From: Eubacteriales bacterium
GTDB lineage: Bacteria; Bacillota; Clostridia; Oscillospirales; CAG-272
Reading direction: 5' to 3'
NCBI GenBank assembly: GCA_045632205.1
Contig: JAZQWH010000002.1
Coordinates: 1-42,682, forward strand
DNA: 42,682 nucleotides
The notes under the pieces are model-generated. The model ran no database searches and was not told where the DNA came from. It saw nothing but the letters and a program-made list of their open reading frames with translations. Below, in pieces: positions 5,116 through 42,682 of this stretch (positions within the stretch are counted from its first letter, which is position 1; every line of letters begins with the position of its first letter). The position numbers and the translations under genes are program-made.

Positions 5116-5130
5116 ACAGCAAAATAAAAC

Positions 5131-5426
5131 GCGAACCTACCGATTTCGGTAGGTTCGTGTTCGTTAATAACCCCTTTTTTGAAAAACAAGTCGTCAAAAC
5201 GCATAAGCTTGTTAGCCACTTTTCTTTTGAAGCCAAAGGCGCAAAAGAAAAGTTAACAAAAGAAAACGCCGAGAAGAAAGTTTCGCCCCTGCGGGGGCGA
5301 GGAGGGCTCCGCGCCCTCCACCGCGCCGCCTTTTGAAAAAGGCGGGCGAAAACTTTTCATCAAATTGGCGGTGCCAATACCTTTGTCATCGATAAAAATG
5401 CGAACCTACCGATTTCGGTAGGTTCG
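5131..5426. repeat. Hairpin-rich intergenic element flanked by a duplicated 27-bp terminator hairpin
   Basis: GCGAACCTACCGATTTCGGTAGGTTCG identical at 5131-5157 and 5400-5426; several internal stem-loops. Confidence 0.7.
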
Positions 5427-5440
5427 CTTTTTTGATTCCG

Positions 5441-7756: not shown

Positions 7757-7789
7757 AGCGTTCTCCTGCTGAAGGGTTTTTGGAGGGGA

Positions 7790-8866: not shown

Positions 8867-8868
8867 GA

Positions 8869-26773: not shown

Positions 26774-26867
26774 TGTGCCAACCTCCGTTTCTTTCTGCCT
26801 TCATTATAATCTGTTTTTCTCTTCCTGTAAATGCACGGATGCTTCAAAAACTTGCACAAATCCGTCA

Positions 26868-26896
26868 TTGACAAGCGCGCGTGACTGTGGTATAAT
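26868..26896 (+). promoter_or_regulatory. Consensus sigma-A promoter
   Basis: TTGACA-17-TATAAT with TG extension. Confidence 0.8.
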
Positions 26897-26925
26897 AAGG
26901 CAAACGGAGAGAGGAGGCGAGACGG

Positions 26926-27699
26926 ATGAAAAAGGATTTGTGCGTCGAGGAGATCGTCAACGTTTATCGGCAGGACACGACGAAATGGAAGAGAGATGCC
27001 TCTCGTGAGCGAAACCGAGAGGGGCTTGTGCTGTTTACGGAGGGGGAGATCGAGTATACTTTCCCGAGCGAGACGGTGCTGGCGCGCCGCGGTTCTTTGA
27101 TGCTTTTTCCGTCAAATCTGCCCTATTGCGGTGTTGCGCGAACCGAACGGGTTGCATATTTCGTTCTCGATTTCAAGTCGGTTGGAGAGGACGGGACGCT
27201 TGCGCTCGGTGCGCCCTGCATTGCCGTTCCGCAGAATTTTGAGGAGCTGTGCCGCGCATTTGACGAGGTGGAGCGTGCGTGGGAGCGGCAGAGCGCGGAG
27301 TCGAATTTGCTTGCCAAGGCATTCTTGTACAAAACGCTCGCGCAGATGGTTGGGGGCGGCAAGCATCCGACGGGCGGAGACGATCGCGGAATTCTGCCCT
27401 ATCTGTTCGATCACTACACCGATCCCGCGCTTTCCGTTTCGTCGCTGTGCCGTGAATTTTTTATTTCCGAGTCACAGCTGAGACGCAATATCCTGCGTGC
27501 AACGGGACTCACACCGAACGAATATATCACCTCCCTGCGCTTAACGCGCGCGAAGCGGGAGCTGATCTGCACGCAAAAAAGAATTTTGGACATCGCCTCG
27601 GAGTGCGGATTTTCCTCCGCCTACTATTTCTCCCGATGCTTTCACCGTCACACAGGCGTCTCTCCCGAGCAATACCGCCAAAGCAACCGATCGGTTTAA
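26926..27699 (+). CDS. AraC family transcriptional regulator
   Basis: C-terminal HTH (IASECGFSSAYYFSRCF...GVSP); divergent from GRE 1. Confidence 0.9.
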   Translation: MKKDLCVEEIVNVYRQDTTKWKRDASRERNREGLVLFTEGEIEYTFPSETVLARRGSLMLFPSNLPYCGVARTERVAYFVLDFKSVGEDGTLALGAPCIAVPQNFEELCRAFDEVERAWERQSAESNLLAKAFLYKTLAQMVGGGKHPTGGDDRGILPYLFDHYTDPALSVSSLCREFFISESQLRRNILRATGLTPNEYITSLRLTRAKRELICTQKRILDIASECGFSSAYYFSRCFHRHTGVSPEQYRQSNRSV

Positions 27700-27766
27700 A
27701 AAAGAACCCGGATCCGCAAGCGAGGTGTCCATCAGGGCACGCCGCATCGGATACGGGCTCTTTTTC
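27698..27766. terminator. Bidirectional terminator-like hairpin
   Basis: AAAGAACCCG.ATCCG...CGGAT.CGGGCTCTTT between convergent genes. Confidence 0.55.
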
Positions 27767-28577
27767 AATTAAAAATTGCATTCAGCGCGTCGAGCGTCTC
27801 CTTGCTCGGCACGTCAAAGGTTGTGGCATCCAAGCCGAGCGCGCCGTATTTGTGTGCGCCCATTGCGTGGTAGGGCAGAAGCTCTGTGCGCTGAGGCTTG
27901 CCGCAGGAATCGAGAAATTCCTTGATGCGGCGCATCTCCTCCTCGCTGTCATTGACCGAGGGAATGAGCGGGATGCGCACCCAAACGGACGCGTTTTTTG
28001 CGAGCAGCAAGCGAAGGTTTTCAAGGATCCGTCCGTTTTCCACGCCCGTGTATTGCTTGTGGAGCCTGCTGTCATAGCATTTTACGTCGTAGAGGAAGAG
28101 ATCGGTATAGGGCAGGATGTGCTCGAAGCGCTCAAACGGCACGTTTCCCGCGGTGTCCACGGCGGTGTGGATGCCGTTTTTTTTGCATTGGGCAAGAAGC
28201 TCCTCCAGAAAATCGATCTGAAGCATACATTCCCCGCCCGAAAAGGTCACGCCGCCCCCCGAGCTTTGGTAGAAGCGCGCATCCTTTTTGATCTCCCGCC
28301 ACACCTCGTCTGCCGTGTATTCCTTGCCGCAGATCTCTCTCGCACCGTTCGGACAGAAAAAATCCGCGTCATACGGGCTGATGATCTTACATTTTCCGCA
28401 ATTTGCGCACTTGCTTTGATAGAACGTCATTTGCGGCTTTGGCGATTGACTTTCGGGATTGTGGCACCACGCGCAGTGCAAATTACAGCCCTTGAAAAAG
28501 ACGGTCGTGCGGATGCCGGGGCCGTCCACAAAGGAATTCCTTTGGATATCGAAAAGCGTTGCGGTTGGATTACTCAT
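27765..28577 (-). CDS. Glycyl-radical enzyme activating enzyme 2
   Basis: DGPGIRTTVFFKGCNLHCAWCHNPES; shortened ferredoxin insert (CANCGKC...CP); GGVTFSGGE. Confidence 0.92.
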   Translation of the reverse strand: MSNPTATLFDIQRNSFVDGPGIRTTVFFKGCNLHCAWCHNPESQSPKPQMTFYQSKCANCGKCKIISPYDADFFCPNGAREICGKEYTADEVWREIKKDARFYQSSGGGVTFSGGECMLQIDFLEELLAQCKKNGIHTAVDTAGNVPFERFEHILPYTDLFLYDVKCYDSRLHKQYTGVENGRILENLRLLLAKNASVWVRIPLIPSVNDSEEEMRRIKEFLDSCGKPQRTELLPYHAMGAHKYGALGLDATTFDVPSKETLDALNAIFN

Positions 28578-30816
28578 AAAAATTCCTCGAGATCACCTCG
28601 TCCTGCCATTCGCGGGAGAGGCTGGTGAATTTTGCGGAAAAGCCCGTGACACGCACGATCAGATGCGGATAGCGCTCGGGGTGCTTCTGCGCGTCGAGTA
28701 GCTCCTCCCTTGAGGTGCAGTTGAGCTGGAGCGATTGGATCGCCGTATGCGAGACCGCGCGCAAAAATCCGACGCAACGGTCAAGCGGAATTTTCGGGGG
28801 CAGGATGATGTTGACCACCGAATTTGCCGCCATCGTGGAGGGATCAAGCGACGCGAGACTGTTGATGACGTCGTTGACGCAGGGGATCCTTTTGAGGCGC
28901 GAGGGGGTAAGCCCCTGCGAAAAATACTCGCCCGCCTTCCGTCCGTCGGGGGTGGCAAGCGTGACCTCTCCCCAGAAGCGGATCTCGGTGTAGGTCAAAT
29001 GCCCCAGATGCACCCTGCCGCCGTAGGTTCCCGTTTTCTTTCGAAAGATGGCGAAAAGATCGTTGTTGAATCGGCTTGCGAGCGCGCAGGAGTCGTCGTT
29101 GCCGTCTCCCCATCCGTGACAGCGCGTTGCCTCAAGTCGCATCTCCTCATAGCCCTCCCAATTGGCGCGGACGGCGGCGAGATAGGCGGGGAGGGTGTAT
29201 TTTTCTTGGTCAAAGACAAGCGTCTTGATCGCCAGGAGCGAGTCCACGATGTTGGGCAGACCGAAGAGAAGCTGATAATCGTCGCGGTAGCGTGCGCCGC
29301 CTGCGGTAAAGTCGGCGTGATTTTCGAGGCAATCGGCGAGCGTGGAGGAGAAGATGGGGAAGACGGAGACCTTGTGGAAGATCTGCCCTCCGCGACGCGT
29401 TTTGTCAAGCTTGGCGTCAAGCACCAGCTCGCAGTTGTGCAGGACCTTACGGTAAAGCTCCTCGAAATCCTCGTCGCCCTCAAGCATTTCAAAGTCGATT
29501 TCCACCTCCTCTGCCTTCTCCTTCAGCCCGTGGACGGAAAATTCAAAGGGCTTGAGCAGATTGAGATAGCTTCCGTGATCGGATTTTTCGGTGGTGGTAA
29601 CAACGTCCCAGCAGCCCGCGATCATATAGTCGCGCGCCTCCTCGATCGGTCTGCCTGCGCGGACAAGGGCGGGGATCATTGCATCATCGTTCTGGAGCAG
29701 GACGGTGGTGGTTCCGTTTGCGATGGCGCGGGAGACCGCCTCGAGATATTCGGTGGGGGAATCCTTCCCAAAGCGACATTTGATCTTGGGGAAGATGACG
29801 CCATTCTCCTGCGTCGCGCGCAAAAAGAGCAGCGTCAGCTCGTTGCAGATCGGGTGTCCCTCCCCGTCACAGCCACCAAGCGTATAGGTGTTTTCCAGCT
29901 CGTGATCGGCGTATCCCGCCATGATCATATTGTGGTCGTAGTGGCAATCCCAGAGGAGGAGGAACTGCGAGATCAGCTCGTATGCCTCGTCGGGCGTGAG
30001 CCTTTGACTCTCAAGATCGGCACGGTAGAAGGAGATCAGATCGAGGTCGAGGCGCCCGAAGGTGTTGGGGCCCGCGCCCTCCAGAGAGCCCATTACGGTG
30101 CGCAAAAAGGCAAGCGCCGCGAGTGCCTCGTAGAAGGTTTTCGGCGCCTCCCACGGCACGCGGCGCGCGGTGTCGGCGATCATAGCAAGATTCTTGCGGC
30201 ATACGGGATCGCGCTCGTCCCGAAGCATCTGTTCCGCCTTGACGGCAAATTTTTTCGCTACGCGGGAAAGCACCTCCATTCCGTGGCAGACCGCCTCGAG
30301 GAATTCCGTCTCGTCCGCGTTTTTCGCTTTTTTCAGCTCGGCTTGCGCCTTTTCAAAGATCCCTCGCGCGCCCATCTCCAGAAACGGACGGCAATTGAAG
30401 TTGAAATGCTGGCAGTTGTCGTTATACGGGCCGCAGATGAGATAGAGCTTTTCCTTTTTTTGCACCTGCGTGATGCGATACAGCTCGGGATCCTGGTCGA
30501 TAAAGAGCTGCTGATTGCGCAGATAGACCCAGGCGTTTGCCTGATAAAATCCAAGCCCCTTTGCCTTAAACGCACCGTCGGAGAGGGAGGTCAATACCCC
30601 CGTTTCAAAGAAAAACGGATTGTGGCGAAAGACTATGGGCGTAAACTCCTCGCAGATGACGTCGTATTGAAGCAGCTTTTGCGCGGTCACGGTCATACCG
30701 TCAGTCGCTCGTTTGTCCATTATGGCAAAGCATTTTTGCGCAAAGGCTTTGGAGCGCTCTGCGTCTCCTTGCAAATAAAAGTCATACAATTCGCGTTTTA
30801 AAGGCTCTGTGTTCAT
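28570..30816 (-). CDS. Glycyl radical enzyme (PFL-like family) 2, substrate unknown
   Basis: ~748 aa; FGRLD, Cys loop GCWD, ATPDGR, glycyl motif VRVTGF. Confidence 0.9.
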   Translation of the reverse strand: MNTEPLKRELYDFYLQGDAERSKAFAQKCFAIMDKRATDGMTVTAQKLLQYDVICEEFTPIVFRHNPFFFETGVLTSLSDGAFKAKGLGFYQANAWVYLRNQQLFIDQDPELYRITQVQKKEKLYLICGPYNDNCQHFNFNCRPFLEMGARGIFEKAQAELKKAKNADETEFLEAVCHGMEVLSRVAKKFAVKAEQMLRDERDPVCRKNLAMIADTARRVPWEAPKTFYEALAALAFLRTVMGSLEGAGPNTFGRLDLDLISFYRADLESQRLTPDEAYELISQFLLLWDCHYDHNMIMAGYADHELENTYTLGGCDGEGHPICNELTLLFLRATQENGVIFPKIKCRFGKDSPTEYLEAVSRAIANGTTTVLLQNDDAMIPALVRAGRPIEEARDYMIAGCWDVVTTTEKSDHGSYLNLLKPFEFSVHGLKEKAEEVEIDFEMLEGDEDFEELYRKVLHNCELVLDAKLDKTRRGGQIFHKVSVFPIFSSTLADCLENHADFTAGGARYRDDYQLLFGLPNIVDSLLAIKTLVFDQEKYTLPAYLAAVRANWEGYEEMRLEATRCHGWGDGNDDSCALASRFNNDLFAIFRKKTGTYGGRVHLGHLTYTEIRFWGEVTLATPDGRKAGEYFSQGLTPSRLKRIPCVNDVINSLASLDPSTMAANSVVNIILPPKIPLDRCVGFLRAVSHTAIQSLQLNCTSREELLDAQKHPERYPHLIVRVTGFSAKFTSLSREWQDEVISRNFYE

Positions 30817-30920
30817 CAAAAATTCCCCTTTCTCGCTTGGATCTGATAACTGTATTCTACTAAAAAAACAAAAAAATGCAATGTAGAATAAAGAAGATTT
30901 GTAAAATACGGAAATTTATA

Positions 30921-30949
30921 TTTACAAACGGAGGATGCTGTGATATAAT
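30921..30949 (+). promoter_or_regulatory. Sigma-A-type promoter
   Basis: TTTACA-17-TATAAT with TG extension. Confidence 0.7.
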
Positions 30950-30966
30950 CGGATCGGAGGGGAGGG

Positions 30967-31707
30967 ATGGATATGAAATTTGAAAAGCTTCGCGTCAGGG
31001 AGATCCGAGGGGTGCTTCGCTACCGCCCGAGTCAGATGCGCTGGAACGCCTCAAACCGCCGAGATCACATCATCGGCATCCAGCTCAGCGGAAGTGCCCT
31101 GCACGAAATGGAGGGGCAAAAATTCGTCCTGCGCGAGAACGTTGCCTATTTTCTCAATCGGAAGGACGATTACCGCGTCGAGGTAGAGGAGGCGGGGGAG
31201 GCGCTCTCGATCCATTTCACCACCTATGAGGAGATCGAAACCGATAGCTTCTGCTTTCCCGCGCAGAATGCGGGGGAGCTCGTGACGATCCTGAAAAAGG
31301 CGGAGGGGGCGCGTGCCGCAGGGAACGAATTGCGCGTGCTGGCACTGCTCTACGAGCTTTGCGACGCGTATGAAAAAATACGGGCGAGGGCGTACGCGCC
31401 GCAGGATGGGCGTATGCTTGCCGCAAAAAATTATATCGACCGTCATTTTGCAGAGGACGGCTGCCTTGCCGAGGCGATCGGTGCGAGCGGACTTTGCGAT
31501 CGCAGATTCCGCGATCTCTTCCGTGCGTCCTTTCAGACCACCCCGGGGCGCTACCTCACGCTCAAGCGGATCGAATACGCAAGACAATTGCTCTCCGTCG
31601 GCGGACTTTCGGTCACCGAGGTCGCGGAGCGCTGCGGCTTCTCGGATCTCTATTATTTCAGTAAGGTGTTCAAGCAGATTTGCGGAATGCCGCCCAGCGA
31701 GTGGTAA
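30967..31707 (+). CDS. AraC family transcriptional regulator
   Basis: C-terminal HTH (SVTEVAERCGFSDLYYFSKVFK); divergent from GRE 2. Confidence 0.9.
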   Translation: MDMKFEKLRVREIRGVLRYRPSQMRWNASNRRDHIIGIQLSGSALHEMEGQKFVLRENVAYFLNRKDDYRVEVEEAGEALSIHFTTYEEIETDSFCFPAQNAGELVTILKKAEGARAAGNELRVLALLYELCDAYEKIRARAYAPQDGRMLAAKNYIDRHFAEDGCLAEAIGASGLCDRRFRDLFRASFQTTPGRYLTLKRIEYARQLLSVGGLSVTEVAERCGFSDLYYFSKVFKQICGMPPSEW

Positions 31708-31762
31708 AAAACGATCCCGAACCGTTTCGCTTATGATAATCGGTATGATCCAAGGAATATCG

Positions 31763-31869
31763 GTGTGTTATCATAGGGACAACACCGTTACACACAAAAT
31801 AATATTTTTCGGACAAAAACGGTTGTCCCTATATAGCGCGCTCGTTTGGCACGTTATAATAGGGACAAC
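31763..31869. repeat. Cluster of three TAGGGACAAC motifs (att/res-like site)
   Basis: GTTATCATAGGGACAAC (31767-83), inverted GTTGTCCCTAT (31822-32) and GTTATAATAGGGACAAC (31853-69); the last two form a 48-bp imperfect palindrome; the same motif ends the arm next to the spoIVB fragments. Confidence 0.7.
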
Positions 31870-31887
31870 TTTTTTATTCGATTTTTT

Positions 31888-32008
31888 TTACGACGCCTTC
31901 GCCATAGGGAGATTGACGGCATTGAGCATATTCTCAATAAAGATCCCGTACCCCGTGGTGGGATCGTTGATCAGCACGTGGGTGACCGCGCCGATGAGCT
32001 TGCCGTCC
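31888..32008 (-). pseudogene. spoIVB: spoIVB 3' fragment, copy 1 (5'-eroded)
   Basis: Translates [39 protein letters not shown]; the SGSPIIQ part and the arm are missing. Confidence 0.85.
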
Positions 32009-32028
32009 CGATTGCAGGGCGCGTGTGT

Positions 32029-33630
32029 TCAAATAGGGGCAACGTCCTTTATCGCCGCAACGTATTTTTTCGCAAGCTCCTTTAAGGATCGATAATCCCT
32101 TGCATTGATCAGCTGTTTGTTATATAGATTCGATCCAACGCCAACTCCGTAAAAGCCCATATCAAGGAAGGCTTTTGCGTTTTCTGCCGTTACGCCGCCA
32201 ACCGCGAGGAGCTTTGCGTCGGAGAGGGGCGCGCAGATCGCCTTGAGGTATCCGCCCGTGACACGGTCTGCAGGGAAGAGCTTGATATAATCGGCGCCGT
32301 GCTTGAGCGCTGCCGCAATCTCGGTTGCCGTGTATGCCGCAGGTATGGAGACCATTCCGAGCCTTCTTGTCAGCGCGATGATCTCGGCGTCGCAGTTGGG
32401 AGAGATGATAAAGGATGCGCCTGCCTCAAACGCGATCAGGACCTCCTCGGGTGACGTGACCGTACCCGCTCCGACGAGCATCCGTCCGTCAAAATTCTGA
32501 TTGAGACACGCGATCATCTCACCGATCTGATCGGGAGCAATTTTGCCGGAGCGGTCGAAGGTGACCTCAAGCAGACGGATCCCGCCCGCATAGAGTGCCT
32601 CTGCCGCAGGGATCAGGGTTTCTCGATCGGGGGCACGCAGGATCGAAATGAGTCGTTCGCTATGGATCGCCCCGAGAATGCGCTCGCGCGCGAGATGGGC
32701 ACGGGAGACGGCATAAATTTTTTGCAAGGCGCAAACGACCGCCGCATCGGTGCATTCCTGCGGCAAAAGGGTTGCGGAATGCTCTTCCAGAAGGATCTCG
32801 TAGATCCGTCCGAGCCGTTGACTTCCGCCGATGAAAATGGGAGACGTGCCTGCGTAGCGGCAAATGAGCGGGCAGTCCTCACGCAGGATCGCACCGCAGA
32901 GGAAGGAGGAGAGAGCGTCGGTGGGGCGTCCGTTTTTCTCCATCACGCGTACGTGGAAGAGCGCGGCATTCAAGCCGTGTTCCGCAGCATACGCCGCACC
33001 GCGAAGGACACCGGTCTCGGAGATCGTAAAGTCGTGTGAGACCGCGCCCGACAAAATGCTCTTCGTGACCGCCATATCGAGCAGCTCTCCGCTGAGCGTG
33101 GTGGCAAAATCCAGGATCTCGCCGTGCTCGCCGATGCGGATGATCTTGTTGTGCGTGCCGGGGAGCAGGATCGTGCAGGCCTGTCCCGCGGGTAATGCGG
33201 AAAGGATGCCGATCAGCTCGGTCTCCTCACCGCGCATCAGATCGCAGAGTCTGCCGTTTGCCGTTTTTTTCAGTCCGGGAACGAATCGGATGGGGATCGC
33301 GGTCAGCTCGGGGATCCTTCTCTCACAAACACTCATTGCCACGCTTGAGAGATCCGAGGGGAGGGAGACGTGAGGGATCTCGCACAGTGCCATCTCGCTT
33401 CCCGACATTCCCGAGGTGAGGATGCATTCCACCGCATCCTCGCTGCAGCCGTTTGATTGCAGGAGGTCGAGGATGACGGCGCGCAGACGTGCGAGCAAGG
33501 TCGCCCTGCCCTCCGTTTTGCCAAGCCCTGCGCCGAGCGGAGCTTTTCTTCGGTCAAGTATTGTATTCCCCTTGCACAGCCAAAGCCTTGTGTTGGTCGT
33601 GCCCATATCCATTGCAAGATACACTGTCAT
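32029..33630 (-). CDS. Fused 2-keto-3-deoxygalactonate kinase (DgoK-like) / KDPG-KDPGal aldolase (Eda/DgoA-like)
   Basis: N-half DMGTTNTR, DLMRGEETE, LPGTHNK; C-half GGIRLLEVT, VGAGTV, FIISP, IKLFPA, AVGGV; ATG 33630 with GGAGG and ATGA overlap with the upstream gene. Confidence 0.85.
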   Translation of the reverse strand: MTVYLAMDMGTTNTRLWLCKGNTILDRRKAPLGAGLGKTEGRATLLARLRAVILDLLQSNGCSEDAVECILTSGMSGSEMALCEIPHVSLPSDLSSVAMSVCERRIPELTAIPIRFVPGLKKTANGRLCDLMRGEETELIGILSALPAGQACTILLPGTHNKIIRIGEHGEILDFATTLSGELLDMAVTKSILSGAVSHDFTISETGVLRGAAYAAEHGLNAALFHVRVMEKNGRPTDALSSFLCGAILREDCPLICRYAGTSPIFIGGSQRLGRIYEILLEEHSATLLPQECTDAAVVCALQKIYAVSRAHLARERILGAIHSERLISILRAPDRETLIPAAEALYAGGIRLLEVTFDRSGKIAPDQIGEMIACLNQNFDGRMLVGAGTVTSPEEVLIAFEAGASFIISPNCDAEIIALTRRLGMVSIPAAYTATEIAAALKHGADYIKLFPADRVTGGYLKAICAPLSDAKLLAVGGVTAENAKAFLDMGFYGVGVGSNLYNKQLINARDYRSLKELAKKYVAAIKDVAPI

Positions 33631-35291
33631 ACCTCCTTGTGCAGATTTCTGTATTTTTGAGGAGAGATCCGTTCCGTGCGCGTAAACGTTTCGGTGAAGT
33701 ACGAGGCGCTTCCAAAGCCCACCTCGCACGCGATCTGTGAGATCCTGAGGTCGGTGTTCTTCAGGAGGAGCTTTGCGCGCGTCATACGCAGCTCGTTGCG
33801 GTATTCGGTTACCGTTGTGCCCGTTTCGGATTTGAAGACGTGAGAGAGATAATAGACGCTGAGATGCAGATCCCGTGCGATTTGCGAGATCGGAATATCC
33901 TCGGAAAGATGCTCCTCCACGTATTCGCAAATGCGCGTGTAAATAGGGGCGCTTTTGGCAGGCTCGGGCGCGGAGGTGAGCCGCTCAATGATCGCTTGCA
34001 GGATCGTGCGATCTCGCCGCTCGCTTGCCTCAAATTGCGCGATCAGAGCATCGAGCTTTTTGAAATCCTGCGTGTAGGGCGCAACGCAATTGGGCGGAAA
34101 ACGCTCGAAAAGTGCCTCGATGGGGTCGGTGTCGGGATCGTCGAGAAGCTCCTGTGCAAGCGTCTCACAGCCTCCCGTGACCGTTCGGTAGGGGTTTGGG
34201 ATGCCCTCTGCAAGACGGGAAAGCTTGCAGACCACGCGGCAAAGATAGCTTTCGGGGTCGCTCAGCGCACCGCAAAGGATCTCATCCTCGGTGATCCGTG
34301 CGACCAGGATCTCGCGCGCGGAGGCATATGCCTCCTCTAAGCCGGAGAGAAAGCAGCCTCGCTCGCGGTCGTAGACGACGTGGATGACACCGCCCTCGCC
34401 AACCGTTACGTCGGGATAGGAGATGCTTTTGCGACTGTCAAGCAGCAGGGAATAGGGGAAGGTCATACCGTCATCCTCCGAAAGATACGCCGTCAGATGA
34501 CTTCTCGTGTCGGAGGTGGCGTGGTTGATCAGAAGCACGCGTCCCGAGGGGAGCTTGCCGACGTAGAAGCGGGAGGAGGGACCGCACAGAGAAAGCTTTC
34601 GTCCACAGCTCCATTGATGTCCCCGATCGTAGGAATAGCTCTCGCCGATTCCGCGATTGAGACGGACGAGCATACGAAGCACGCCGTTGTTCATTTCATA
34701 GACCATATGCTCGTCATAGGAGCGGTTGGGGACGTCCGCACCGCCGAGACGGTGAAAGCTTTGCCCGTTGTCGGAGGTCTTGTAAACGTAGGATGCCGCC
34801 ACGTCCTCCTCCGTCAGCCCGCGTCTGCGGAGATTGGCGAGGAGATCGGGCTTCCAGATCGCAATGGGGAAGAGCCATTCGCCGGTGGAGAGCACGGTGG
34901 GCTTGTTCATCATCACGCCTCTTCCGATATAAAATTCACGTGACCATACCGGCTCGTCGGCGTCGGGATCCTCGCAGAGGGCGCCCCAAACCTCCTCACC
35001 GGGCATCACGTTCCATATAAACCAAAGTCGCTTTAGGGGATCGATCCAAAGCACGGGGTCGAAGCAACGGAAGGCACCCGACTTGCAGGCGACCGCGATA
35101 GGCTCACTGTATCGAAGCTCATCGTCGGAGCGGATGAGGGCGGCAAAGTTCCCAAAGGTCTCTTTGGTGTCGCCGGAATAGAAGGAGACGAATATGCGTC
35201 CGCGCGGCGTGCGGGCAATTCCGGGAATCCCCTGCCATACACGTCGATCGGAGGCGAAGTCTTTTAATTTGGAAGCATCGGTGATCAGCAT
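33627..35291 (-). CDS. Sialidase-like (BNR) domain fused to an AraC DNA-binding domain
   Basis: RVWQGIP, Asp-boxes (TSDNGQSF, SYDRGHQW, SEDDGMTF), SYPD, YDRER; C-terminal AraC HTH (IACEVGFGSASYFTETF). Confidence 0.8.
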   Translation of the reverse strand: MLITDASKLKDFASDRRVWQGIPGIARTPRGRIFVSFYSGDTKETFGNFAALIRSDDELRYSEPIAVACKSGAFRCFDPVLWIDPLKRLWFIWNVMPGEEVWGALCEDPDADEPVWSREFYIGRGVMMNKPTVLSTGEWLFPIAIWKPDLLANLRRRGLTEEDVAASYVYKTSDNGQSFHRLGGADVPNRSYDEHMVYEMNNGVLRMLVRLNRGIGESYSYDRGHQWSCGRKLSLCGPSSRFYVGKLPSGRVLLINHATSDTRSHLTAYLSEDDGMTFPYSLLLDSRKSISYPDVTVGEGGVIHVVYDRERGCFLSGLEEAYASAREILVARITEDEILCGALSDPESYLCRVVCKLSRLAEGIPNPYRTVTGGCETLAQELLDDPDTDPIEALFERFPPNCVAPYTQDFKKLDALIAQFEASERRDRTILQAIIERLTSAPEPAKSAPIYTRICEYVEEHLSEDIPISQIARDLHLSVYYLSHVFKSETGTTVTEYRNELRMTRAKLLLKNTDLRISQIACEVGFGSASYFTETFTRTERISPQKYRNLHKEV

Positions 35292-35376
35292 CGCAAAACC
35301 TCACAAAAAACGGATTTTCACCGTTATTATAGCACGGGTGACTCGGATTTTCTATAACAGGATTGCTATTTATGAA

Positions 35377-35414
35377 GGAGGCGACCCCACCAAACGGTGA
35401 GATCGCCTCTTTTT
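35377..35414. terminator. Terminator following spoIVB fragment 2
   Basis: GAGGCGA...CACC-AAAC-GGTG...TCGCCTC-TTTTT. Confidence 0.65.
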
Positions 35415-35558
35415 ATGCAGTTTTTTTCTCTGTCTGCGCCGGCATCGTGTTTACCATATTCTCAATAAAGATCCCATACTCCGTAGTCGGATCGTTGATC
35501 AGCACGTGGGTGACCGCACCGACGAGCTTGCCGTCCTGAATGATTGGGCTGCCGCTCA
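35413..35558 (-). pseudogene. spoIVB: spoIVB 3' fragment, copy 2
   Basis: Translates [47 protein letters not shown]; starts at the TG preceding the catalytic Ser codon of GMSGSP. Confidence 0.9.
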
Positions 35559-35583
35559 GTAGTGTGGTCAAGTAGGGACAACA
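35557..35583 (-). mobile_element. Putative att junction (core TG + conserved non-spoIVB arm)
   Basis: CAGTAGTGTGGTCAAGTAGGGACAACA; shared with 38629-38655; GC content drops abruptly to the right. Confidence 0.7.
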
Positions 35584-35676
35584 AAATTTGTACTGTTTTT
35601 TATTAAACGTTTCGCTTTTTGTATTTCTTCGTCCGTGGGAATGTGGTGAGGCATGGAATTAGTCATTCCAAGCGCC

Positions 35677-36510
35677 TCACGTTTTGATACGGCATATTTG
35701 TGACACATCAATACCCGTATTTTTTTGATTTCTGTACGCGGACGGAGAATAGCCCGTTTTCTCTTTGAAAATTCTTGAAAAATAAGATGGACTTGAAAAT
35801 CCGCATAGGGTACTCACCTGAGTGACAGATATGTCCTCCTTTTTTAATAGCTCTTTTGCCATAGTTATTCTTGTTTGTACGATATAGTCCATAACGGTAA
35901 TACCTATCTTTCCTTTGAATAACCTGCAGAGATAATACTTGTTTATATAACATATCTCGCTTATTTTATCGATTGAAATATCTTCAGAAATATGTTGATT
36001 GATAAAGTTTATAACGGTTTGGAGAGAATTGGGTTCGGGTCTTGCTTCTGTAATTGCATTTTTTGTAAGAATGATCATAAGCCGAATGGCCGCAGATGAT
36101 ATTTCGGCTTGGATATACTTTGAATCTTCCGATAAACTATTTAACGTGTCGAAAATATCTCGGACCGCGTTTTTATCGTTTTCTCCAAGAATAGAAAAGA
36201 TGATCGCATCTTCGTTAAAAAGCTCTGTAAAGTTTGGATAATTGCCAAGTACGTGTGTTAAGCTATCCAATATATTTGATTCTAAGAACAGTTTACTTCT
36301 TGTGTATTCCATAGGTTTAGTTGGAAAGGTATAATGGTATTTGTTTTTACCTATATAGCAAAGCACTCCTGATTGCAGAGGATAGCTTTTGTCACGGAAA
36401 ACGATACTTCCTTTTCCGGATTCTATAAAAAGAAAGGTGTTTTTTTTCGGTGTATGCCATATTTTATAAAAATTGTCTTTTCCTTTTTGGTTAACGGTAA
36501 TATCGTACAT
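35677..36510 (-). CDS. AraC family transcriptional regulator (AT-rich cassette B)
   Basis: Cupin + HTH (VSTLCGFSSPSYFSRIFK...SP). Confidence 0.9.
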   Translation of the reverse strand: MYDITVNQKGKDNFYKIWHTPKKNTFLFIESGKGSIVFRDKSYPLQSGVLCYIGKNKYHYTFPTKPMEYTRSKLFLESNILDSLTHVLGNYPNFTELFNEDAIIFSILGENDKNAVRDIFDTLNSLSEDSKYIQAEISSAAIRLMIILTKNAITEARPEPNSLQTVINFINQHISEDISIDKISEICYINKYYLCRLFKGKIGITVMDYIVQTRITMAKELLKKEDISVTQVSTLCGFSSPSYFSRIFKEKTGYSPSAYRNQKNTGIDVSQICRIKT

Positions 36511-36697
36511 TTTATTCTCCTATGAATATAGCTTGGCTTATATTATAGCATACTTTTTATCATAAGTCAATGAGAGTAAAAAATAGGTCAAAAAAATGAT
36601 TGTATTGAATAAAAAATTGAATTATAATAAATCATCAATTGATTTAAATTTTAAAAATTAATTGAAATATCGGATAATCGAAAGGATACATAATCAA

Positions 36698-37486
36698 ATG
36701 TTTGATTTAAAGGGTAGAGTAGCTATAGTTACCGGAGCTGTGGCGGGGCTTGGCAGAGATATGGCAGAGGTATTTGCGGAATACGGATGTGATATTATTA
36801 TTACAAGCCGCCAGATAGAAAAGGCAAATAAGGCTGCCGCTGAAATTGAAGAAAAATATTCGGTAAAGGCAATGGGGCTCTCCCTTGACGTAACGTCTTG
36901 CGAAAGCGTTGAAGCATTTGCGAAAAGTGCAATGGAGTGGCAAGGACATATCGATATCCTTGTAAATAATTCCGGCGGCGGAAGTGGTGCCTCCGAGGGA
37001 CATATTTTTGACCGTCCGTATAAGGATATTTTCAATATGATTAACGTAAATCTTACGGGAACTATTTTTGTGTGCAAGGCTGTTGGAGCATATATGAAGT
37101 CACAGGGCTTCGGTAAGATAATCAATATAGGCTCTATTGCGGGAATGGTCGGTCGTGATCGCAGAATGTACTATAAAGCAAATAAGATGGAGCAACCGGT
37201 TGATTATGCGGCGGCAAAGGGCGGTGTAATATCATTGACACGTGACTTGGCGGCGGTTATGGCACCATACGGTGTAAACGTAAATTGCATATCTCCCGGC
37301 GGATTTGATAAAGGAGAGCTTCCGGCTGAATTTGTAAGGCTTTACAGTGACCGTACTGCACTTGGACATATGGGGCGTATCGGAAGTGATATAAAGGGCG
37401 CGGCACTCTTTCTTGCAAGCAGTGCATCCGATTACGTTACGGGCATAAATCTTGCGGTTGACGGAGGATTTTCGTCATGGCAGTAA
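36698..37486 (+). CDS. SDR family oxidoreductase (gluconate 5-dehydrogenase/KduD-like)
   Basis: TGAVAGLG, ILVNNSG, YAAAK catalytic motif, VDGG; ATG 36698. Confidence 0.9.
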   Translation: MFDLKGRVAIVTGAVAGLGRDMAEVFAEYGCDIIITSRQIEKANKAAAEIEEKYSVKAMGLSLDVTSCESVEAFAKSAMEWQGHIDILVNNSGGGSGASEGHIFDRPYKDIFNMINVNLTGTIFVCKAVGAYMKSQGFGKIINIGSIAGMVGRDRRMYYKANKMEQPVDYAAAKGGVISLTRDLAAVMAPYGVNVNCISPGGFDKGELPAEFVRLYSDRTALGHMGRIGSDIKGAALFLASSASDYVTGINLAVDGGFSSWQ

Positions 37487-38439
37487 AAGACCGTAAGATA
37501 TTTATTGTTGGATGCGGTTCTATCGGAAAAAGACATGCGGAATGTCTTTTTGAGTTGGGTATTAAAAGATTTGTATTTTTTGACCCCGATGCTGAAAAAA
37601 TGGCAGAGCTTGCAAAAATATATGACGGAGAAACAGTAGCTTCCTTTGATGAAGGGCTTGATACCGATGCGGATTGTGTCTATATACTTTCCCCGACCCG
37701 TTGTCACGTAGAGCAGGCATTTGCGGCTGTAATGCATGGAAAGCACGTTTTCCTTGAAAAGCCTTTGTCGGATTCTCTTGACGGAATTGACGAGCTTTCC
37801 TCTCTTGCTCAGGAAAAAGGTATAACCGTTGAAGTGGGATTCTGCTTCAGATTTCACGAAGGTATTTGTGAACTTAAACGCCGTCTTGATAACAAAGAGA
37901 TCGGGAAGCTTGTCTCTATTCGCGCTATGATGGGAGAGCATTTTCCCGATGTGCGGCCCGATTATTTATCAACGTATTACGTTAAGTATTCGGGAGCATT
38001 TGAGCTTATACACGATCTCGACCTTGCAATATATCTTGCGGGAGAAGAGCCTGTATCATGTAACGGATTTTTCGGTTCGTACGGCGAGCTTGGCTTTGAG
38101 TCTCCTGATACGGTTGAAATATCGGTTAAATTTCCGAGTTGTCTTGCAAATGTACATCTTGACTTTTTCCAGTCTCCGCGTACCCGTACTATGACACTGC
38201 TTGGTACTAACGGACAGATGGTGCTTACCTTCTCTACATGGGATGAATATGAGTTAAAAATATATACGCGAGAAAAAGGGAAGTGGGAAACCGTTTGCGC
38301 AAATACACGGCGTAACGATATGTTTAAGGCTGAGTCGCTTAACTTCTTTGGTGCAATAGACGGAACTCAAAAAAATCTTTGCCCTATTTCCGAAGCAAAA
38401 AAATCGCTTGTCGTATGTAAAACGGTTAATCCGAGTTAA
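37477..38439 (+). CDS. Gfo/Idh/MocA family oxidoreductase
   Basis: VGCGSIGKRH, HVFLEKP, ELIHDLD. Confidence 0.9.
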   Translation: MAVKDRKIFIVGCGSIGKRHAECLFELGIKRFVFFDPDAEKMAELAKIYDGETVASFDEGLDTDADCVYILSPTRCHVEQAFAAVMHGKHVFLEKPLSDSLDGIDELSSLAQEKGITVEVGFCFRFHEGICELKRRLDNKEIGKLVSIRAMMGEHFPDVRPDYLSTYYVKYSGAFELIHDLDLAIYLAGEEPVSCNGFFGSYGELGFESPDTVEISVKFPSCLANVHLDFFQSPRTRTMTLLGTNGQMVLTFSTWDEYELKIYTREKGKWETVCANTRRNDMFKAESLNFFGAIDGTQKNLCPISEAKKSLVVCKTVNPS

Positions 38440-38443
38440 TAAA

Positions 38444-38483
38444 AAAGGCAATATCAAACCGCTATGGAATGATATTGCCTTTT
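38444..38483. terminator. Bidirectional terminator attached to spoIVB fragment 3
   Basis: AAAGGCAATATCA...TGATATTGCCTTTT; identical copy at 42621-42660. Confidence 0.8.
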
Positions 38484-38487
38484 ATTT

Positions 38488-38630
38488 TTACGACGCCTTC
38501 GCCATGGGCATATTTGCCGCATTTAGCATATTTTCAATGAAAATCCCATACCCCGTGGTGGGGTCGTTGATAAGCACGTGCGTGACCGCACCGACGAGCT
38601 TGCCGTCTTGGATGATTGGGCTGCCGCTCA
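38488..38630 (-). pseudogene. spoIVB: spoIVB 3' fragment, copy 3
   Basis: Translates [46 protein letters not shown]. Confidence 0.9.
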
Positions 38631-38655
38631 GTAGTGTGGTCAAGAAAGGACAACA
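38629..38655 (-). mobile_element. Putative att junction (core TG + conserved arm)
   Basis: CAGTAGTGTGGTCAAGAAAGGACAACA, 2 mismatches versus 35557-35583. Confidence 0.7.
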
Positions 38656-38669
38656 ATTTTTTGAAAATT

Positions 38670-39434
38670 TTATATCTTGTTTTTTTTTCTGTACTTTTGA
38701 GGAGAGATACTGTAATGTTGCTTGAACATTTTTGAAAACAGAAGCGCATCGTCATAGCCTACAGATTTTGCGATCAGTGAAATATCTTCATCTGTATCAA
38801 TGAGCAAAAAAGCTGCTCGCTCCATTCTGATTTTTTGCAGGTATTGCTTGGGTGAAATGCACACCTGTTGAACAAATATTGTACGGATATAATTTTTGTT
38901 CAAGTAAAATTTTTTCGCTATTTCCTCTATGGTAAGCTTTTTATAGTAATTTTCTTTAATGAATTTTGCAATGCATTCAACGTGCTGCCTGGGCATGCTT
39001 TTGGTTAAGGCTATCGGATATTCTTTCTTGAATAAAAGAAAAATGGCATTTGCAATTATTTTTTTTGCGGTTGGATCGCCATCGTATGACAACTTTTGAT
39101 AAAGGGATAAAATCTGAAAAAGACTTTCCGTATCGGAGAACGGTACTACTGATAAGCCTAAATTGAAATTATGCTCTTGAAACGCCTTTTTTATTTCATC
39201 ACCCATTAATCTTACGTAAATGTAACTCCAAGGATCGTTTTTTGAGGGATAATAATTCATTCTGTTATTCTCAAAAGATATGAAAACGGTACCCGTTGTG
39301 ACTTTTTGACCGTTAATATATCCCTCTCCCGATAACACGAAGTGAAGTACCGAATATGGAATAATACAATCAATTTTAGTTTTATCAGGGGCACACTGCT
39401 CAAAAGCCATATCAGTGGTGTAAATGTTATACAT
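38670..39434 (-). CDS. AraC family transcriptional regulator (AT-rich cassette C)
   Basis: [11 protein letters not shown]...DPW.Y.Y, HTH ([18 protein letters not shown]...SP). Confidence 0.9.
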
Positions 39435-39550
39435 AAGCTGACCTCCGCACCATTAATAGTGTTATTATAACATATAAAACAGTTGTTTTGCAATAGAAAA
39501 AATTGATTTTTCCATTATAATGGACAAAAATACATCAGGAGAGATAACTT

Positions 39551-42500
39551 ATGGGAACATTTGAAGATCAAAGATTGTATAATCCTGAATTTATACAAGA
39601 AAACAGACTTGCTCCGAGAGCTACTGTAATTCCATCACTTCATAAAGGAGTTTTTTATAAAAACAGGTTGGAGTCAGAGCTGATACTTGACCTTAACGGA
39701 GACTACAGATTTTGCTGGTGTGAAAAAGACAATATTAAGGATTTTTACAGAAGCGACTATGATGACAGGGAATGGGATATTCTGCCCGTGCCTTCAATGT
39801 GGCAATATCACGGATATTCCGAACCGCTGTACCCAAACGTAAGATACCCAATTCCTTTAGTTCCACCTTACGTGGGAAATTATAATCCCGTTGGATACTA
39901 CAGAAAAGTCTTCAAGACAAGCAAAGGCGGGCGAAAAATTCTTTATTTTGGCGGCGTTGATTGCGCATTTTTCGTTTATCTTAACGGCGAATACGTAGGA
40001 TTTTCAAAGGGGAGCCGAATGCCTGCGGAATTTGACGTTACAGAGATTATTTGCGAGGGTGAAAATCTCCTTGCCGTCAAGGTATTCACCTACTCGGACG
40101 GAACCTATCTTGAAAATCAGGATATGCTTCTCGCCAGCGGAATTTTCAGAGATGTTATGCTCTATACCTTGAATGGTACCTATATATGGGATTACCGCAT
40201 AAAAGCTAAAGGCGACTCTATATATGCAGATATAAATTTGGGCGGAAATATTCTCTCTGATGCAAGCGTAAGAGTTTCGGTTGACGGTATGACGCAAACG
40301 GTCAACGCAAAAAAGAACGTATCCTTTGAATTTGCCATAGAAACTCCCATTTGTTGGAATGCAGAGCAGCCTCACACCTATGAGGTTGTAATAGAATTGC
40401 TTCAAAACGATGCAGTTTTAGAAATTCATACGAAGAAGGTAGGATTTGCTGAATTTGAAATTGTTAAAAACAAGATACTTCTTAACGGTAGTCAGATAAC
40501 CCTTAAGGGTATAAACCGCCACGAGCACGACCCAAGGAACGGTCGCGCCATCACGGTAGAGCGTATTGAACGTGAGTTAAAGCTTATCAAGGACCACAAT
40601 ATGAACGCCATACGTTGCGCCCATTATCCCAACAATCCCGCCTTTTATGAAATGTGTACCGAACTTGGAATATACGTTATGAATGAAGCCGACATTGAAA
40701 CTCACGGAGCGCACACGTGCGGTGACATGGGATATTTCTCAAAGCAGCCCCGGTGGTATCAGGCGTATATTGACAGAGTCAGCCGTATGTATGAAAGAGA
40801 CAAAAACGAAAGCTGTATATCAATATGGACTCTCGGAAATGAAAACGGCAACGGAGAAAATCTTTACAGATGCTTTGAATATCTGAAAGCAAAGGTTGGA
40901 AAGACCCCGGTTATGCATACGGGTGATAACGGACATGAACCGAAGATAAGCGAATTCCGCGCATGCGGATACCAAACCATGGAAACCCTTATGAGTTTCC
41001 CCACCGATGGAAATCCCGTAATGATGCTGGAATACGGACACGCCATGGGCAACAGTCCGGGACTTATGAAGGACACCTGGGATTACGTATACCGTAACAG
41101 ACATATCTGCGGTGGATACGTCTGGGAGTTCAAGAACCACGGATTTTACAGTGAGGACGCCGACGGAAACGTCTTTTACAAGTACGGTGGAGATTTTTCG
41201 GGTGAAGTCTACCATTGGTCTAATTTCTCTATGGACGGTTACTGTACCTCTGACGGTACTCCAAAGGCTACACTCAAAGAATGTAAAAACGTCCTTGCGC
41301 CTACCTATGTTTCCTACAAGGATGGAAAGATAATGCTTATGAATACTAACGATTTCCGTTCTCTTGATTATCTTACGCTTAAGTGGGAGCTTGCGGAGGA
41401 TTACCTTCCAATAAAATCCGGTGAAATGAAGCTTCCGCCTATCGCACCTTATAATAGTGCCGAGCTGAATATTGATACGAGCGTCAGCGAGCCCGTTGCG
41501 GGCGCTGAATATTTTGCCAATCTGCGGTTCTATGACGAGTTCGGCCTTGAAGTTGCCTATAAGCAGGTATCTCTTGGAATTAAGAAGGAAAAGGAAGAGT
41601 ATGTATCAGTAAAGGCGAGTGTTCAGATCGAGGAAACGAATAGTGAAATAACACTGAAAAATGATGCCTTTACGCTAAAGATCGCCAATGGACTTATCTC
41701 ATACTTACAAAAGAATAACAAGGTTATACTTAGTAAACCCGTAAAGCTTAATCTGTACCGCGCCCCCATAGATAATGATGGTATCGTTAAATTCAGCGAA
41801 CGATGGATAAAAGAGTGGCAAAAAGCTCTGTACCGCCATTTTGAGCTGATGCCCTTGAATATAAGCACAGAAAGGCAGAACGACGGTTCGGTTTCGGTGA
41901 GCGTAGTAGGTAAGTGGACTCCGCCTTCTGCCTACGAAGGCTTTGATATTGATATAGTCTATACGGTATACGGAAACGGAGATATATTCGTAAATATTCA
42001 CGGAAAGCCTTACGGAAAATTTGCGGAAACGGTTCCAAGAATAGGTCTCGTGTTTACTCTTGATAAGACTATGTCCCGGGCGCTCTGGTACGGACGTGGA
42101 GAGGATGAATGTTACGTTGACAGCTGTGAGCATTGTAATTTCGGACTGTATGAAAAGAATATTGAAGATATGAATTTCCTTTACGATATCCCTCAGGAAA
42201 ACGGAACGAGAGTAGACACTCGCTTCGTCAAGGTTGGAAATAATAAAATTTCGCTGTCCGTTATAGGATCAAATAGCTTTGCATTCTCTTATCACGATTT
42301 TGACTTGGAGAATCTTATAAGCGCAAGACACCGCAATGAGTTGAATAAGTCGGACGAGAATTATCTGTATATTGATTATGCCATGCGCGGTCTCGGAAGT
42401 AAGTCCTGCGGTCCCGACCCCGAGGAGTGCTATGAGCTTCGCGCTCACGAATTCAGATTTGCCTTTCTTTTATCAACGTGTTCAAAGGAAGGCGAGCTCT

Positions 42501-42610
42501 TGACACAGTATCGTAAAAGATTCAGTGCGAAAACTGAAAAGCTTGGCGAAACACATATTTTTGCTCCCCAAAAGGATAGTATAAATATTGTGGAATGTAA
42601 TAAAGATTGA
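39551..42610 (+). CDS. lacZ: GH2 beta-galactosidase (LacZ/EbgA-like)
   Basis: 1019 aa; YLENQDM...SGIFRDV, KGINRHEH, RCAHYP, WTLGNE (acid/base), EYGHAMGNS (nucleophile), PQENG.R. Confidence 0.88.
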   Translation: MGTFEDQRLYNPEFIQENRLAPRATVIPSLHKGVFYKNRLESELILDLNGDYRFCWCEKDNIKDFYRSDYDDREWDILPVPSMWQYHGYSEPLYPNVRYPIPLVPPYVGNYNPVGYYRKVFKTSKGGRKILYFGGVDCAFFVYLNGEYVGFSKGSRMPAEFDVTEIICEGENLLAVKVFTYSDGTYLENQDMLLASGIFRDVMLYTLNGTYIWDYRIKAKGDSIYADINLGGNILSDASVRVSVDGMTQTVNAKKNVSFEFAIETPICWNAEQPHTYEVVIELLQNDAVLEIHTKKVGFAEFEIVKNKILLNGSQITLKGINRHEHDPRNGRAITVERIERELKLIKDHNMNAIRCAHYPNNPAFYEMCTELGIYVMNEADIETHGAHTCGDMGYFSKQPRWYQAYIDRVSRMYERDKNESCISIWTLGNENGNGENLYRCFEYLKAKVGKTPVMHTGDNGHEPKISEFRACGYQTMETLMSFPTDGNPVMMLEYGHAMGNSPGLMKDTWDYVYRNRHICGGYVWEFKNHGFYSEDADGNVFYKYGGDFSGEVYHWSNFSMDGYCTSDGTPKATLKECKNVLAPTYVSYKDGKIMLMNTNDFRSLDYLTLKWELAEDYLPIKSGEMKLPPIAPYNSAELNIDTSVSEPVAGAEYFANLRFYDEFGLEVAYKQVSLGIKKEKEEYVSVKASVQIEETNSEITLKNDAFTLKIANGLISYLQKNNKVILSKPVKLNLYRAPIDNDGIVKFSERWIKEWQKALYRHFELMPLNISTERQNDGSVSVSVVGKWTPPSAYEGFDIDIVYTVYGNGDIFVNIHGKPYGKFAETVPRIGLVFTLDKTMSRALWYGRGEDECYVDSCEHCNFGLYEKNIEDMNFLYDIPQENGTRVDTRFVKVGNNKISLSVIGSNSFAFSYHDFDLENLISARHRNELNKSDENYLYIDYAMRGLGSKSCGPDPEECYELRAHEFRFAFLLSTCSKEGELLTQYRKRFSAKTEKLGETHIFAPQKDSINIVECNKD

Positions 42611-42620
42611 CTTAAATATC

Positions 42621-42682
42621 AAAGGCAATATCAAACCGCTATGGAATGATATTGCCTTTTATTTTTACGACGCCTTCGCCAT
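42621..42682 (-). repeat. Terminator + spoIVB 3' end, copy 4 (cut by window edge)
   Basis: 62 bp identical to 38444-38505 (encodes ...MAKAS*). Confidence 0.9.

Follow-up and report, generated by a model that had tools for sequence, protein, structure and literature searches.

Tandem cassettes lacking a recombinase, bounded by arm-TG-tail junctions at the catalytic-serine codon of spoIVB, in gut Clostridia

We describe an array of displaced spoIVB gene ends in a 42,682-nt stretch of DNA (the window), which is the entire contig C2 of a Eubacteriales genome from the family CAG-272 (GCA_045632205.1, contig JAZQWH010000002.1; here G000, an assembly of 229 contigs and 88.6% completeness). The last 141 bases of the window are identical to the first 141 of contig C66, which encodes a complete 396-aa SpoIVB and is contiguous with the window via this overlap. 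As the overlap joins the two contigs, the order along the gene strand is that of an intact gene followed three times by a cassette and an arm-TG-tail junction: intact spoIVB with its terminator (termB), cassette E3, arm-TG-T2 with termB, E2, arm-TG-T1 with a hairpin, E1, a decayed arm with T0, a palindrome (pal) and a “third site” (Table 1). Domain assignments within the cassettes were made with Pfam and the order of the junctions was established by reading the sequence and by folds; the cargo is wholly different from cassette to cassette.

The 43-nt pattern GTTGTCCYTWCTTGACCACACTAC-TG-AGCGGCAGCCCAATCAT matches the window twice with 0 mismatches (35540-35582 and 38612-38654, both on the minus strand), with a chance expectation of 0, none of 100 dinucleotide-preserving shuffles having matched. 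Each copy consists of a 24-nt arm, TG and then AGC GGC AGC CCA ATC..., that is, SGSPI. Repeat and profile searches detected a third, decayed junction at about 32043-31890, from which the end of the arm, the core and the start of the tail are deleted, and a fourth tail copy, the end of the intact gene's own tail, forms the final 68 nt of the window; no further decayed arms or tails were found in the window below 31740. The termB hairpin is also present 3' of spoIVB in a cassette-free relative (G426), and the pal module stands behind the stop codon of the intact gene in relatives.

The target of these junctions lies within the protease itself, which in relatives has PDZ and Peptidase_S55 domains. 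The intact gene reads ...GTG CAG GGA ATG AGC GGC AGC CCA... (V Q G M S G S P) around this point, and its homology to the displaced tails starts at the T of TG in ATG. This agrees with a preliminary description, made from the window alone, which had read both junctions as arm-TG-spoIVB tail and had taken the TG for the last two bases of the Met codon in GMSGSP. In the solved SpoIVB chain 9lnf_A, the position aligned to the Ser following that Met is occupied by the Ala of ...GMAGAP..., which would be residue 378; an S378A variant is named in PMC12502668. By comparison, the predicted attB is shown to be centred on the TG of the Met codon directly before the catalytic Ser codon of spoIVB. The spoIVB frame at the head of the array stays whole, since each cassette is provided, on the upstream side, with a full replacement tail and a terminator, and earlier tails are pushed downstream.

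Table 1. Positions of the spoIVB-derived features and cassettes in the window (arms J3, J2 and J1; displaced tails T2, T1 and T0; P3, partner arm).
Feature	Position	Strand	Details
Intact spoIVB 3' end	42615..42682	-	Last codons MAKAS* and terminator hairpin termB; rest of gene on C66
Cassette E3	38656..42614		Glycoside hydrolase family 2 (GH2) beta-galactosidase 39551-42610 (+); AraC-family regulator 38670-39434 (-); Pfam
A/T-rich flank	38655-38675		Beside arm J3, at the E3 edge
Arm J3	38631..38654	-	P-type half-site GTTGTCCTTTCTTGACCACACTAC
J3 core dinucleotide	38629..38630	-	TG
Displaced spoIVB tail T2	38488..38628	-	Ends MAKAS; stop 38488-38490
termB behind T2	38441..38482	-	Hairpin and T-run; -21.6 kcal/mol, z -6.6
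Cassette E2	35583..38440		Gfo/Idh/MocA oxidoreductase 37477-38439 (+); short-chain dehydrogenase 36662-37486 (+); AraC regulator 35677-36510 (-); Pfam
Arm J2	35559..35582	-	GTTGTCCCTACTTGACCACACTAC
J2 core dinucleotide	35557..35558	-	TG
Displaced spoIVB tail T1	35413..35556	-	Foreign-looking C-terminus
Terminator hairpin of T1	35374-35409		-27 kcal/mol
Cassette E1	32044..35373		AraC regulator fused to BNR/sialidase-like domain 33627-35291 (-); 2-keto-3-deoxygalactonate kinase and KDPG (2-keto-3-deoxy-6-phosphogluconate) aldolase fusion 32029-33930 (-); Pfam
Decayed arm J1	32022..32043	-	GTTGCCCCTATTTGAACACACG; 11-nt deletion removes arm end, core and tail start
Displaced spoIVB tail T0	31888..32021	-	Oldest displaced tail (...MAKAS*)
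pal	31822..31869	-	Arm/arm' palindrome; strong hairpin then T-run; -30 kcal/mol, z -7.8
Third site	31741..31783	-	P3 (31760-31783), TA, reverse complement of last ~17 nt of spoIVB head (GGIVQG)

The arm was searched for, at up to 3 mismatches, in a family sample of 401 genomes (400 others and G000) from 97 genera. It was detected in 21 of the 400 other genomes and in 13 genera, including that of the window, and a reversed-pattern control matched one genome. Almost all matches (24 of 26, two of the 26 being the window's own) were followed by TG and a spoIVB tail. A scan of species representatives, one genome per species, returned at least 119 arm stretches, and contexts were counted in 80 loci among the matches listed. 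These loci contain 87 arms, of which 59 precede a clean tail and 7 a decayed or cut tail, the rest being 18 arm/arm' palindromes, one arm-TG-arm' site, one other context and one chance match in an unrelated phylum. The same junction, arm-TG-tail, accounted for 33 of 48 arms on metagenome contigs. On these counts, relatives nearly always have the arm fused to a spoIVB tail at TG, and arms stand overwhelmingly beside spoIVB fragments rather than away from them. The broad host range across spore-formers that the preliminary description had expected from the conservation of the target codons is not supported by these matches: 79 of the 80 loci among the matches listed belong to uncultured gut Clostridia labelled Eubacteriales, Oscillospiraceae, Clostridia, Clostridiales or Ruminococcus. 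Two scans of 2.9 million viral contigs, with the junction arm and with the partner arm, gave 0 stretches, hence no phage source was found.

Because retrieval by the arm inflates its apparent conservation, the survey was redone from the tail protein. A tail match was present in 346 of the 401 family genomes, with two or more tails in 44 (counted from the table) and nine in one genome. Of 22 displaced tails at 13 loci retrieved independently of the arm, 19 start at the same TG behind a diverged arm variant (e.g. GTTGTCCCTAATGAACATCGAACG, GTTGGTCCTATATCGACACACTCG), so the position is constant while the arm evolves between lineages. The TG is kept in approximately 130 of 132 unique junctions, although the displaced tails no longer code and the pattern used to retrieve the junctions for alignment did not contain TG. 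Information at the tail codon positions was 0.47 at the third position vs 1.22 and 1.36 at the first two; third positions are far more variable, hence the tails diverged as coding sequence. In the logo proposed in the preliminary description, the conservation of the arm is inflated by its own retrieval.

Two further kinds of sequence recur beside the arms. At several loci (L069/L230, L193, L224, L035) the tail behind some arms is only ~0-20 nt long and gives way to a recurring GC-rich tgcggtgcaagcgttaccgcttgg..., and GC-rich GTAGGGGCG...CGCCCCTAC hairpins recur just behind spoIVB in L039, L040, L185 and L188; these may represent a family of elements resembling repetitive extragenic palindromes (REP-like). 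A gene for an AAA_14+DUF4143 ATPase is the commonest single cargo after AraC modules (10 of the 80 loci among the matches listed, e.g. L029, L033, L038, L041, L034), its start always lying ~135 nt from the arm and the gene pointing away, with two such cassettes in series in G359. We considered this ATPase as a mobility protein and dropped it, as it is missing from the window cassettes and genuine recombinases were identified.

Most relatives have, downstream of the intact gene, a palindrome, a T-run, the partner arm P3 (GTTGTCCCTATTATAACACACTAC), 2 nt and, in reverse complement, the final ~17-24 nt of the spoIVB head; P3, the 2 nt and the head piece together have the appearance of an inverted attL (head-TG-arm'). 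We collected 57 unique third sites of this kind, with cores TC (26), TA (12), CA (8), CC (6), TG (3) and GG (2); that of the window is, judged by its parts, an inverted attL-type relic. In one relative (G401), P3-CA-reverse complement of the junction arm forms the 50-bp site GTTGTCCCTACTTGACCACACTCG-TG-GGAGCGTGTTATAATAGGGACAAC (24+2+24), which is absent from the window, and the far end of the cargo carries a minimal attB made of a 24-nt head piece, TG and tail; its two contigs were joined by a 141-nt overlap. Another genome (locus L055) holds the same cassette in the other state, with head piece-TG-arm' and arm-TG-tail. Between the two, a 2982-nt block of 90.7% identity is inverted and ends on both cores (3804-6783 vs 3574-601) with colinear flanks, and all four half-site combinations are seen with matching flanks. 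A reciprocal exchange at TG distinguishes G401 from L055.

Tyrosine recombinases need a 6-8-bp identical overlap. The two parental sites here share only TG at the crossover, which fits the chemistry of serine recombinases and not a tyrosine overlap. Beyond G401 (locus L109) the full arm-TG-arm' site matched nowhere else across species genomes, and metagenome contigs gave 0 stretches. The preliminary description had recognised in a 24-bp arm and a 2-bp core the geometry of a large serine recombinase (LSR) site, and the 50-bp site and minimal attB of G401, together with the hybrids of L055, bear this out; according to PMC12286644, att sites of such enzymes are ~40-50 bp. Its proposal that arm-TG-tail is the attP has to be replaced, as the window junctions are hybrids of attR type and the attP is arm-TG-arm'. 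By eye, the 50-bp G401 site also shows TTGACC and, after a spacer of 18 nt, TATAAT with TGT before it; this candidate consensus-like promoter would be assembled only when both arms are joined, as at insertion-sequence circle junctions.

Pfam searches found no recombinase domain in the 42.7 kb of the window, and no recombinase flanks spoIVB on C66 or in 12 relatives. Candidate enzymes came instead from genomes in which spoIVB is split. In G412, from the window's own genus, a genus-level protein search gave a SpoIVB match that stops at residue 351, and the DNA reads ...GTG CAG GGA A-TG-GGAGTGTGTTATAATAGGGACAAC, i.e. spoIVB is split by the partner arm. An exact junction scan of all species genomes detected seven stretches with spoIVB head-TG-arm' (L261-L267), in six of which the head alignment spans 262-349 residues and ends at residue 350, the seventh being cut by a contig end. 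The G412 junction is probably among these seven and was not counted separately, because its 77-nt flank is the same as that of one of them.

LSR genes lie within ~400 nt of the partner arm in all three split stretches with enough flank. The best assembled case (contig C33 of G429) has three tandem open reading frames (ORFs) of 543, 570 and 530 aa next to the partner arm, hereafter the trio, with Resolvase, Recombinase and DUF4368 domains; Zn_ribbon_recom was found in the first two, with no match in the third. The trio ends 264 nt from the arm, and the arm abuts a SpoIVB truncated at profile position 175 of 210. The recovered LSR genes show 95-100% protein identity across three genomes, which suggests that the system was recently active somewhere; all three are complete only in G429. 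At the DNA level the identity of the trio element, 96.8% over 3964 nt, stops ~25 nt into a divergent spoIVB head. Against NCBIfam models the trio is only distantly near XisF and CcrA/B/C, far under the cut-offs, and the right end of the element was not found over 37 kb of G429 or in five trio genomes. In relatives, then, the trio element is shown to occupy spoIVB at this TG, with the partner arm forming the joint. The enzyme class named in the preliminary description holds in so far as LSR genes adjoin the partner arm in relatives, and fails for the window and G000, which encode none; likewise, the co-occurring serine recombinases it called for exist at split spoIVB genes and were not found in the arm-TG-tail loci examined.

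Serine recombinases of five arm-bearing genomes were also inspected, and none lies on a spoIVB contig. One of these, the single serine recombinase of G287 (93% identical to one in G241), was rejected as the enzyme, because no arm occurs within 7 kb of it and it seems to lie inside a cotJC-like gene. The two are 519-aa LSRs from different genera (L166, G287:C15 ~7380-8939; L167, G241:C23 ~7493-9052), each in a ~1.8-kb block common to both, and the sequence directly downstream resembles, by eye, the C-terminal part of a CotJC-type manganese catalase. No spoIVB-type arm was found near this LSR, and the block may be a separate intervening element in a spore-coat gene.

We interpret the arm as the P-type half of an LSR site and the recombinase-less cassettes as relatives or leftovers of the trio element that were moved in trans, a reading to which we assign a probability of roughly 0.78. 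Under it, an element site arm-TG-arm' of 50 bp would recombine with the spoIVB attB to yield head-TG-arm' and arm-TG-tail. The three tandem attR-type junctions of the window bound three small cassettes, each an AraC regulator with sugar-catabolic genes and without a recombinase, and the enzyme would be supplied from outside G000 by the element that occupies spoIVB in relatives at the same TG via the partner arm. The cassettes may be non-autonomous relatives of the trio-element family or what is left of its members, and may have been inserted, or rearranged and inverted, by the trio recombinases acting in trans. They would subsequently have spread and been reshuffled between species, partly by homologous exchange in the conserved tail repeats.

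Movement of cassettes between species is suggested by several comparisons. Cassette E2 and a cassette of G403 share 90.4% identity over 3008 nt, whereas the spoIVB genes of the two genomes are only 74% identical. Between G241 and G403, which belong to different genera, identity rises from 62% in the spoIVB head to 82% in the tail and reaches 94% in the sequence that starts with the partner arm P3. Contigs of animal-gut metagenomes, from four runs in four studies, contain E3 at ~98-99% identity. G403, G241 and G008 have arrays of tails as well, and up to 9 tail matches were counted in G008. In the animal-gut contigs with E3, the arm ends CG instead of AC, and E1 and E2, unlike E3, are scarcely covered. 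These contigs of four public runs, compared with 31000-42682, give no view of excision, circles or strand, and the short-sided joints between tail copies within them probably derive from spoIVB genes of other organisms.

A number of observations weigh against our interpretation. G000 has 0 matches to both PF00239 and PF07508 and no tblastn match to the trio, in a genome assembled to the completeness given above. No serine recombinase was found by Pfam in any cassette examined, and tblastn with five LSRs as queries gave 0 matches in 80 genome loci, 45 metagenome loci and 13 tail-based loci. A junction-type arm and the trio were not seen on one contig, and in four of the five trio genomes neither a junction-type arm nor a tail was found. 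The expected CA core is kept in only 8 of the 57 third sites, the evidence for inversion comes from one genome pair, one member of which had to be joined from two contigs, and the arm logo overstates conservation for the reason given above. Recombination of attR with attB is not a reaction of classical large serine integrases, so textbook rules leave unexplained how cassettes that already carry a tail enter. There is precedent among serine recombinases for such behaviour, since PMC5595907 notes that CcrAB also recombine non-canonical site pairs, regarded there as a likely route to fusion of staphylococcal cassette chromosome (SCC) elements.

Homologous recombination offers the most serious alternative. 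Compared with T2, the intact tail shows 8 differences in nt 1-75 and 0 in nt 76-140, and compared with T1 it shows 4 and 26 in the same two segments; it equals T2 in its distal 65 nt and terminator and is nearer to T1 in its first 75 nt. From this mosaic it is apparent that homologous exchange between tail copies has occurred in G000, a further point against our interpretation. The block common to G000 and G403 also ends within a tail, and E2 and E3 are without the P3 module altogether and abut a native-type terminator, again contrary to what we propose. The arms could hence be inherited scars of one or a few old integrations, with cassettes moving only by RecA-type recombination between the ~140-200-bp tail and terminator repeats, through Campbell-type circle insertion and unequal crossing-over, and with no recombinase acting on the window sites today. 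The lack of a recombinase in G000 and the 49 of 57 third-site cores that are not CA would be expected on these terms. Set against this, the arms differ by lineage and the same TG is nonetheless the starting point of 19 of the 22 tails retrieved independently, a precise core-to-core inversion separates two genomes, the trio is nearly identical across species, and TG persists at almost all unique junctions despite the non-coding tails. We regard scars reshuffled by homology as a possibility to be taken seriously, though a tentative one.

A bolder extension of recombination in trans is that spoIVB serves as an integron-like capture platform run in trans by the trio element, and that the cassettes carry a “self-healing” module: an inverted spare spoIVB tail and a minimal 20-24-nt attB half-site beside the cassette's own attachment site. 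Once integration had split the gene, the recombinases would make a second inversion that joins the host head to the spare tail, so that the protease is restored, and mutation of the left-over core would lock the healed state, which could be the origin of the third-site cores that are no longer CA. If true, this would explain both the excess of recombinase-less loci (at least 119 stretches vs 7 that split the gene) and stacking to nine deep. An integron proper has an integrase gene beside the insertion point and promoterless cassettes bounded by attC, whereas no recombinase was found beside spoIVB on C66 or in the 12 relatives and the cassettes carry their own regulators. We consider the proposal unlikely.

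Tyrosine-recombinase islands of the tRNA/icd/fda type would account for the duplicated tail as the identity segment of attP and attB. G000 has seven tyrosine-recombinase matches, and replacement of a 3' end with tandem accretion of integrase-less elements is typical of such islands. However, the seven lie on contigs other than C2 and C66, the cassettes and flanks scanned contain no Phage_integrase domain, the element site and minimal attB share too little for the overlap required, and it is serine recombinases that adjoin the partner arm, all of which makes this origin very improbable. Least credible of all is a regulatory or RNA role for the arm, as promoter, terminator or small RNA, with tails made by segmental duplication, for although the arm/arm' palindrome folds as a strong terminator-like hairpin and the 50-bp site holds promoter-like motifs, the junction arm itself is unstructured (fold z 0.76), no Rfam family reached threshold in 31000-42682 (a single sub-threshold plastid-family match on the termB hairpin was taken as chance), the cargo changes entirely between cassettes, and the reciprocal hybrid sites and interrupted genes would be left unexplained. 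A consensus promoter/terminator scan gave counts not above shuffles and missed the long-loop hairpins.

Trans-acting LSRs being our preferred explanation, the array can be compared with known systems. Sporulation genes are interrupted by intervening elements excised by LSRs, such as skin in sigK, SPbeta in spsM and gin in gerE (PMC5595907 and PMC4191935). The trio element resembles these in lying inside the coding sequence of a sporulation gene, as in the seven spoIVB stretches in which residue 350 is followed by the partner arm, and differs in its target and in carrying three recombinases. The window itself is unlike them, with an uninterrupted gene and recombinase-less cassettes. Treated as an intervening element, it fails two defining features, as the spoIVB reading frame in G000 is whole (396 aa), the cassettes bringing a spare tail, and no recombinase is present. 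In the open literature searched, with subscription journals and closed supplements outside the search, we found no paper that pairs spoIVB with attB, a serine recombinase or an intervening element.

The architecture is closer to SCC and pseudo-SCC elements at orfX/rlmH, where serine-recombinase cassettes insert in the 3' portion of a conserved gene that survives the event and stack in tandem, each bounded by a target-end repeat and many lacking a recombinase. G000 has this structure, with three displaced tails, an intact gene and a preserved ORF. The trio scores only 42-107 bits against the NCBIfam CcrA/B/C models, with cut-offs of 700-900, and so is not Ccr. Our array differs further in that the repeat comprises 47 codons and a terminator, in contrast to the few codons repeated in SCC, in the extra inverted attL-type module with a minimal head piece, and in its hosts, uncultured gut Clostridia.

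Streptococcal integrative and conjugative elements (ICEs) and integrative and mobilizable elements (IMEs) have three LSR genes in tandem at one end, and their target is a conserved gene, as with the trio element. At the fda 3' end (ICESt1/ICESt3) and at icd (phage 21/e14), the element supplies a replacement 3' end of its target and non-autonomous elements accumulate in arrays, again as observed here. The latter depend on tyrosine recombinases and a longer identical overlap, unlike the 2-bp exchange and linked serine recombinases at spoIVB. From the triplet ICEs/IMEs, for which the phrase “triplet of serine recombinases” is used in PMC4701971, our system differs in target, host group and a large population of recombinase-less, tail-carrying cassettes.

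Other repeats in the window and G000 deserve mention. Window positions 23685-31707 contain two tandem paralogous modules at ~4-kb spacing, corresponding to repeat families D2, D4, D6 and D9, each with an AraC regulator, a pyruvate formate-lyase-like (PFL-like) glycyl-radical enzyme and an activase. The same AraC/PFL-like/activase module is an arm- and tail-bounded spoIVB cassette in G287 and G392; no arm or tail remnant was found behind the modules in the window. On contig C118 of G000 (L179; 1528-1680 and 4397-4708, minus strand), the final ~50 codons of spo0A are present a second time, displaced ~2.9 kb downstream from the intact copy, hence a second sporulation gene of this genome may carry a tail-replacing insertion. 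Its tail homology starts ...GTC(A/G)AGCGTGC..., and the sequence to the left of this bears no relation to the spoIVB arm. Another palindromic repeat, TAGGGAAAACTTTTT...AAAAAGTTTTCCCTA with a conserved ...GTCTGTGCCACTG... stretch behind it, occurs on at least 12 G000 contigs, often near contig ends (e.g. C38:970-984, C108:8030-8043, C141:4415-4429, C66:4577-4591).

With these results spoIVB, at its catalytic-serine codon, joins the short list of sporulation genes targeted by serine-recombinase elements. A defined site pair is gained, the 50-bp element site and the spoIVB target, with the trio as candidate enzymes, together with a large and previously undescribed population of recombinase-less cassettes in one family of gut Clostridia. 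The system raises the question of whether serine recombinases could be made to insert into an essential coding sequence without damage. As the cassettes move carbohydrate-use genes between genera while the target gene is kept whole, they bear on the trade of metabolic modules among gut anaerobes.

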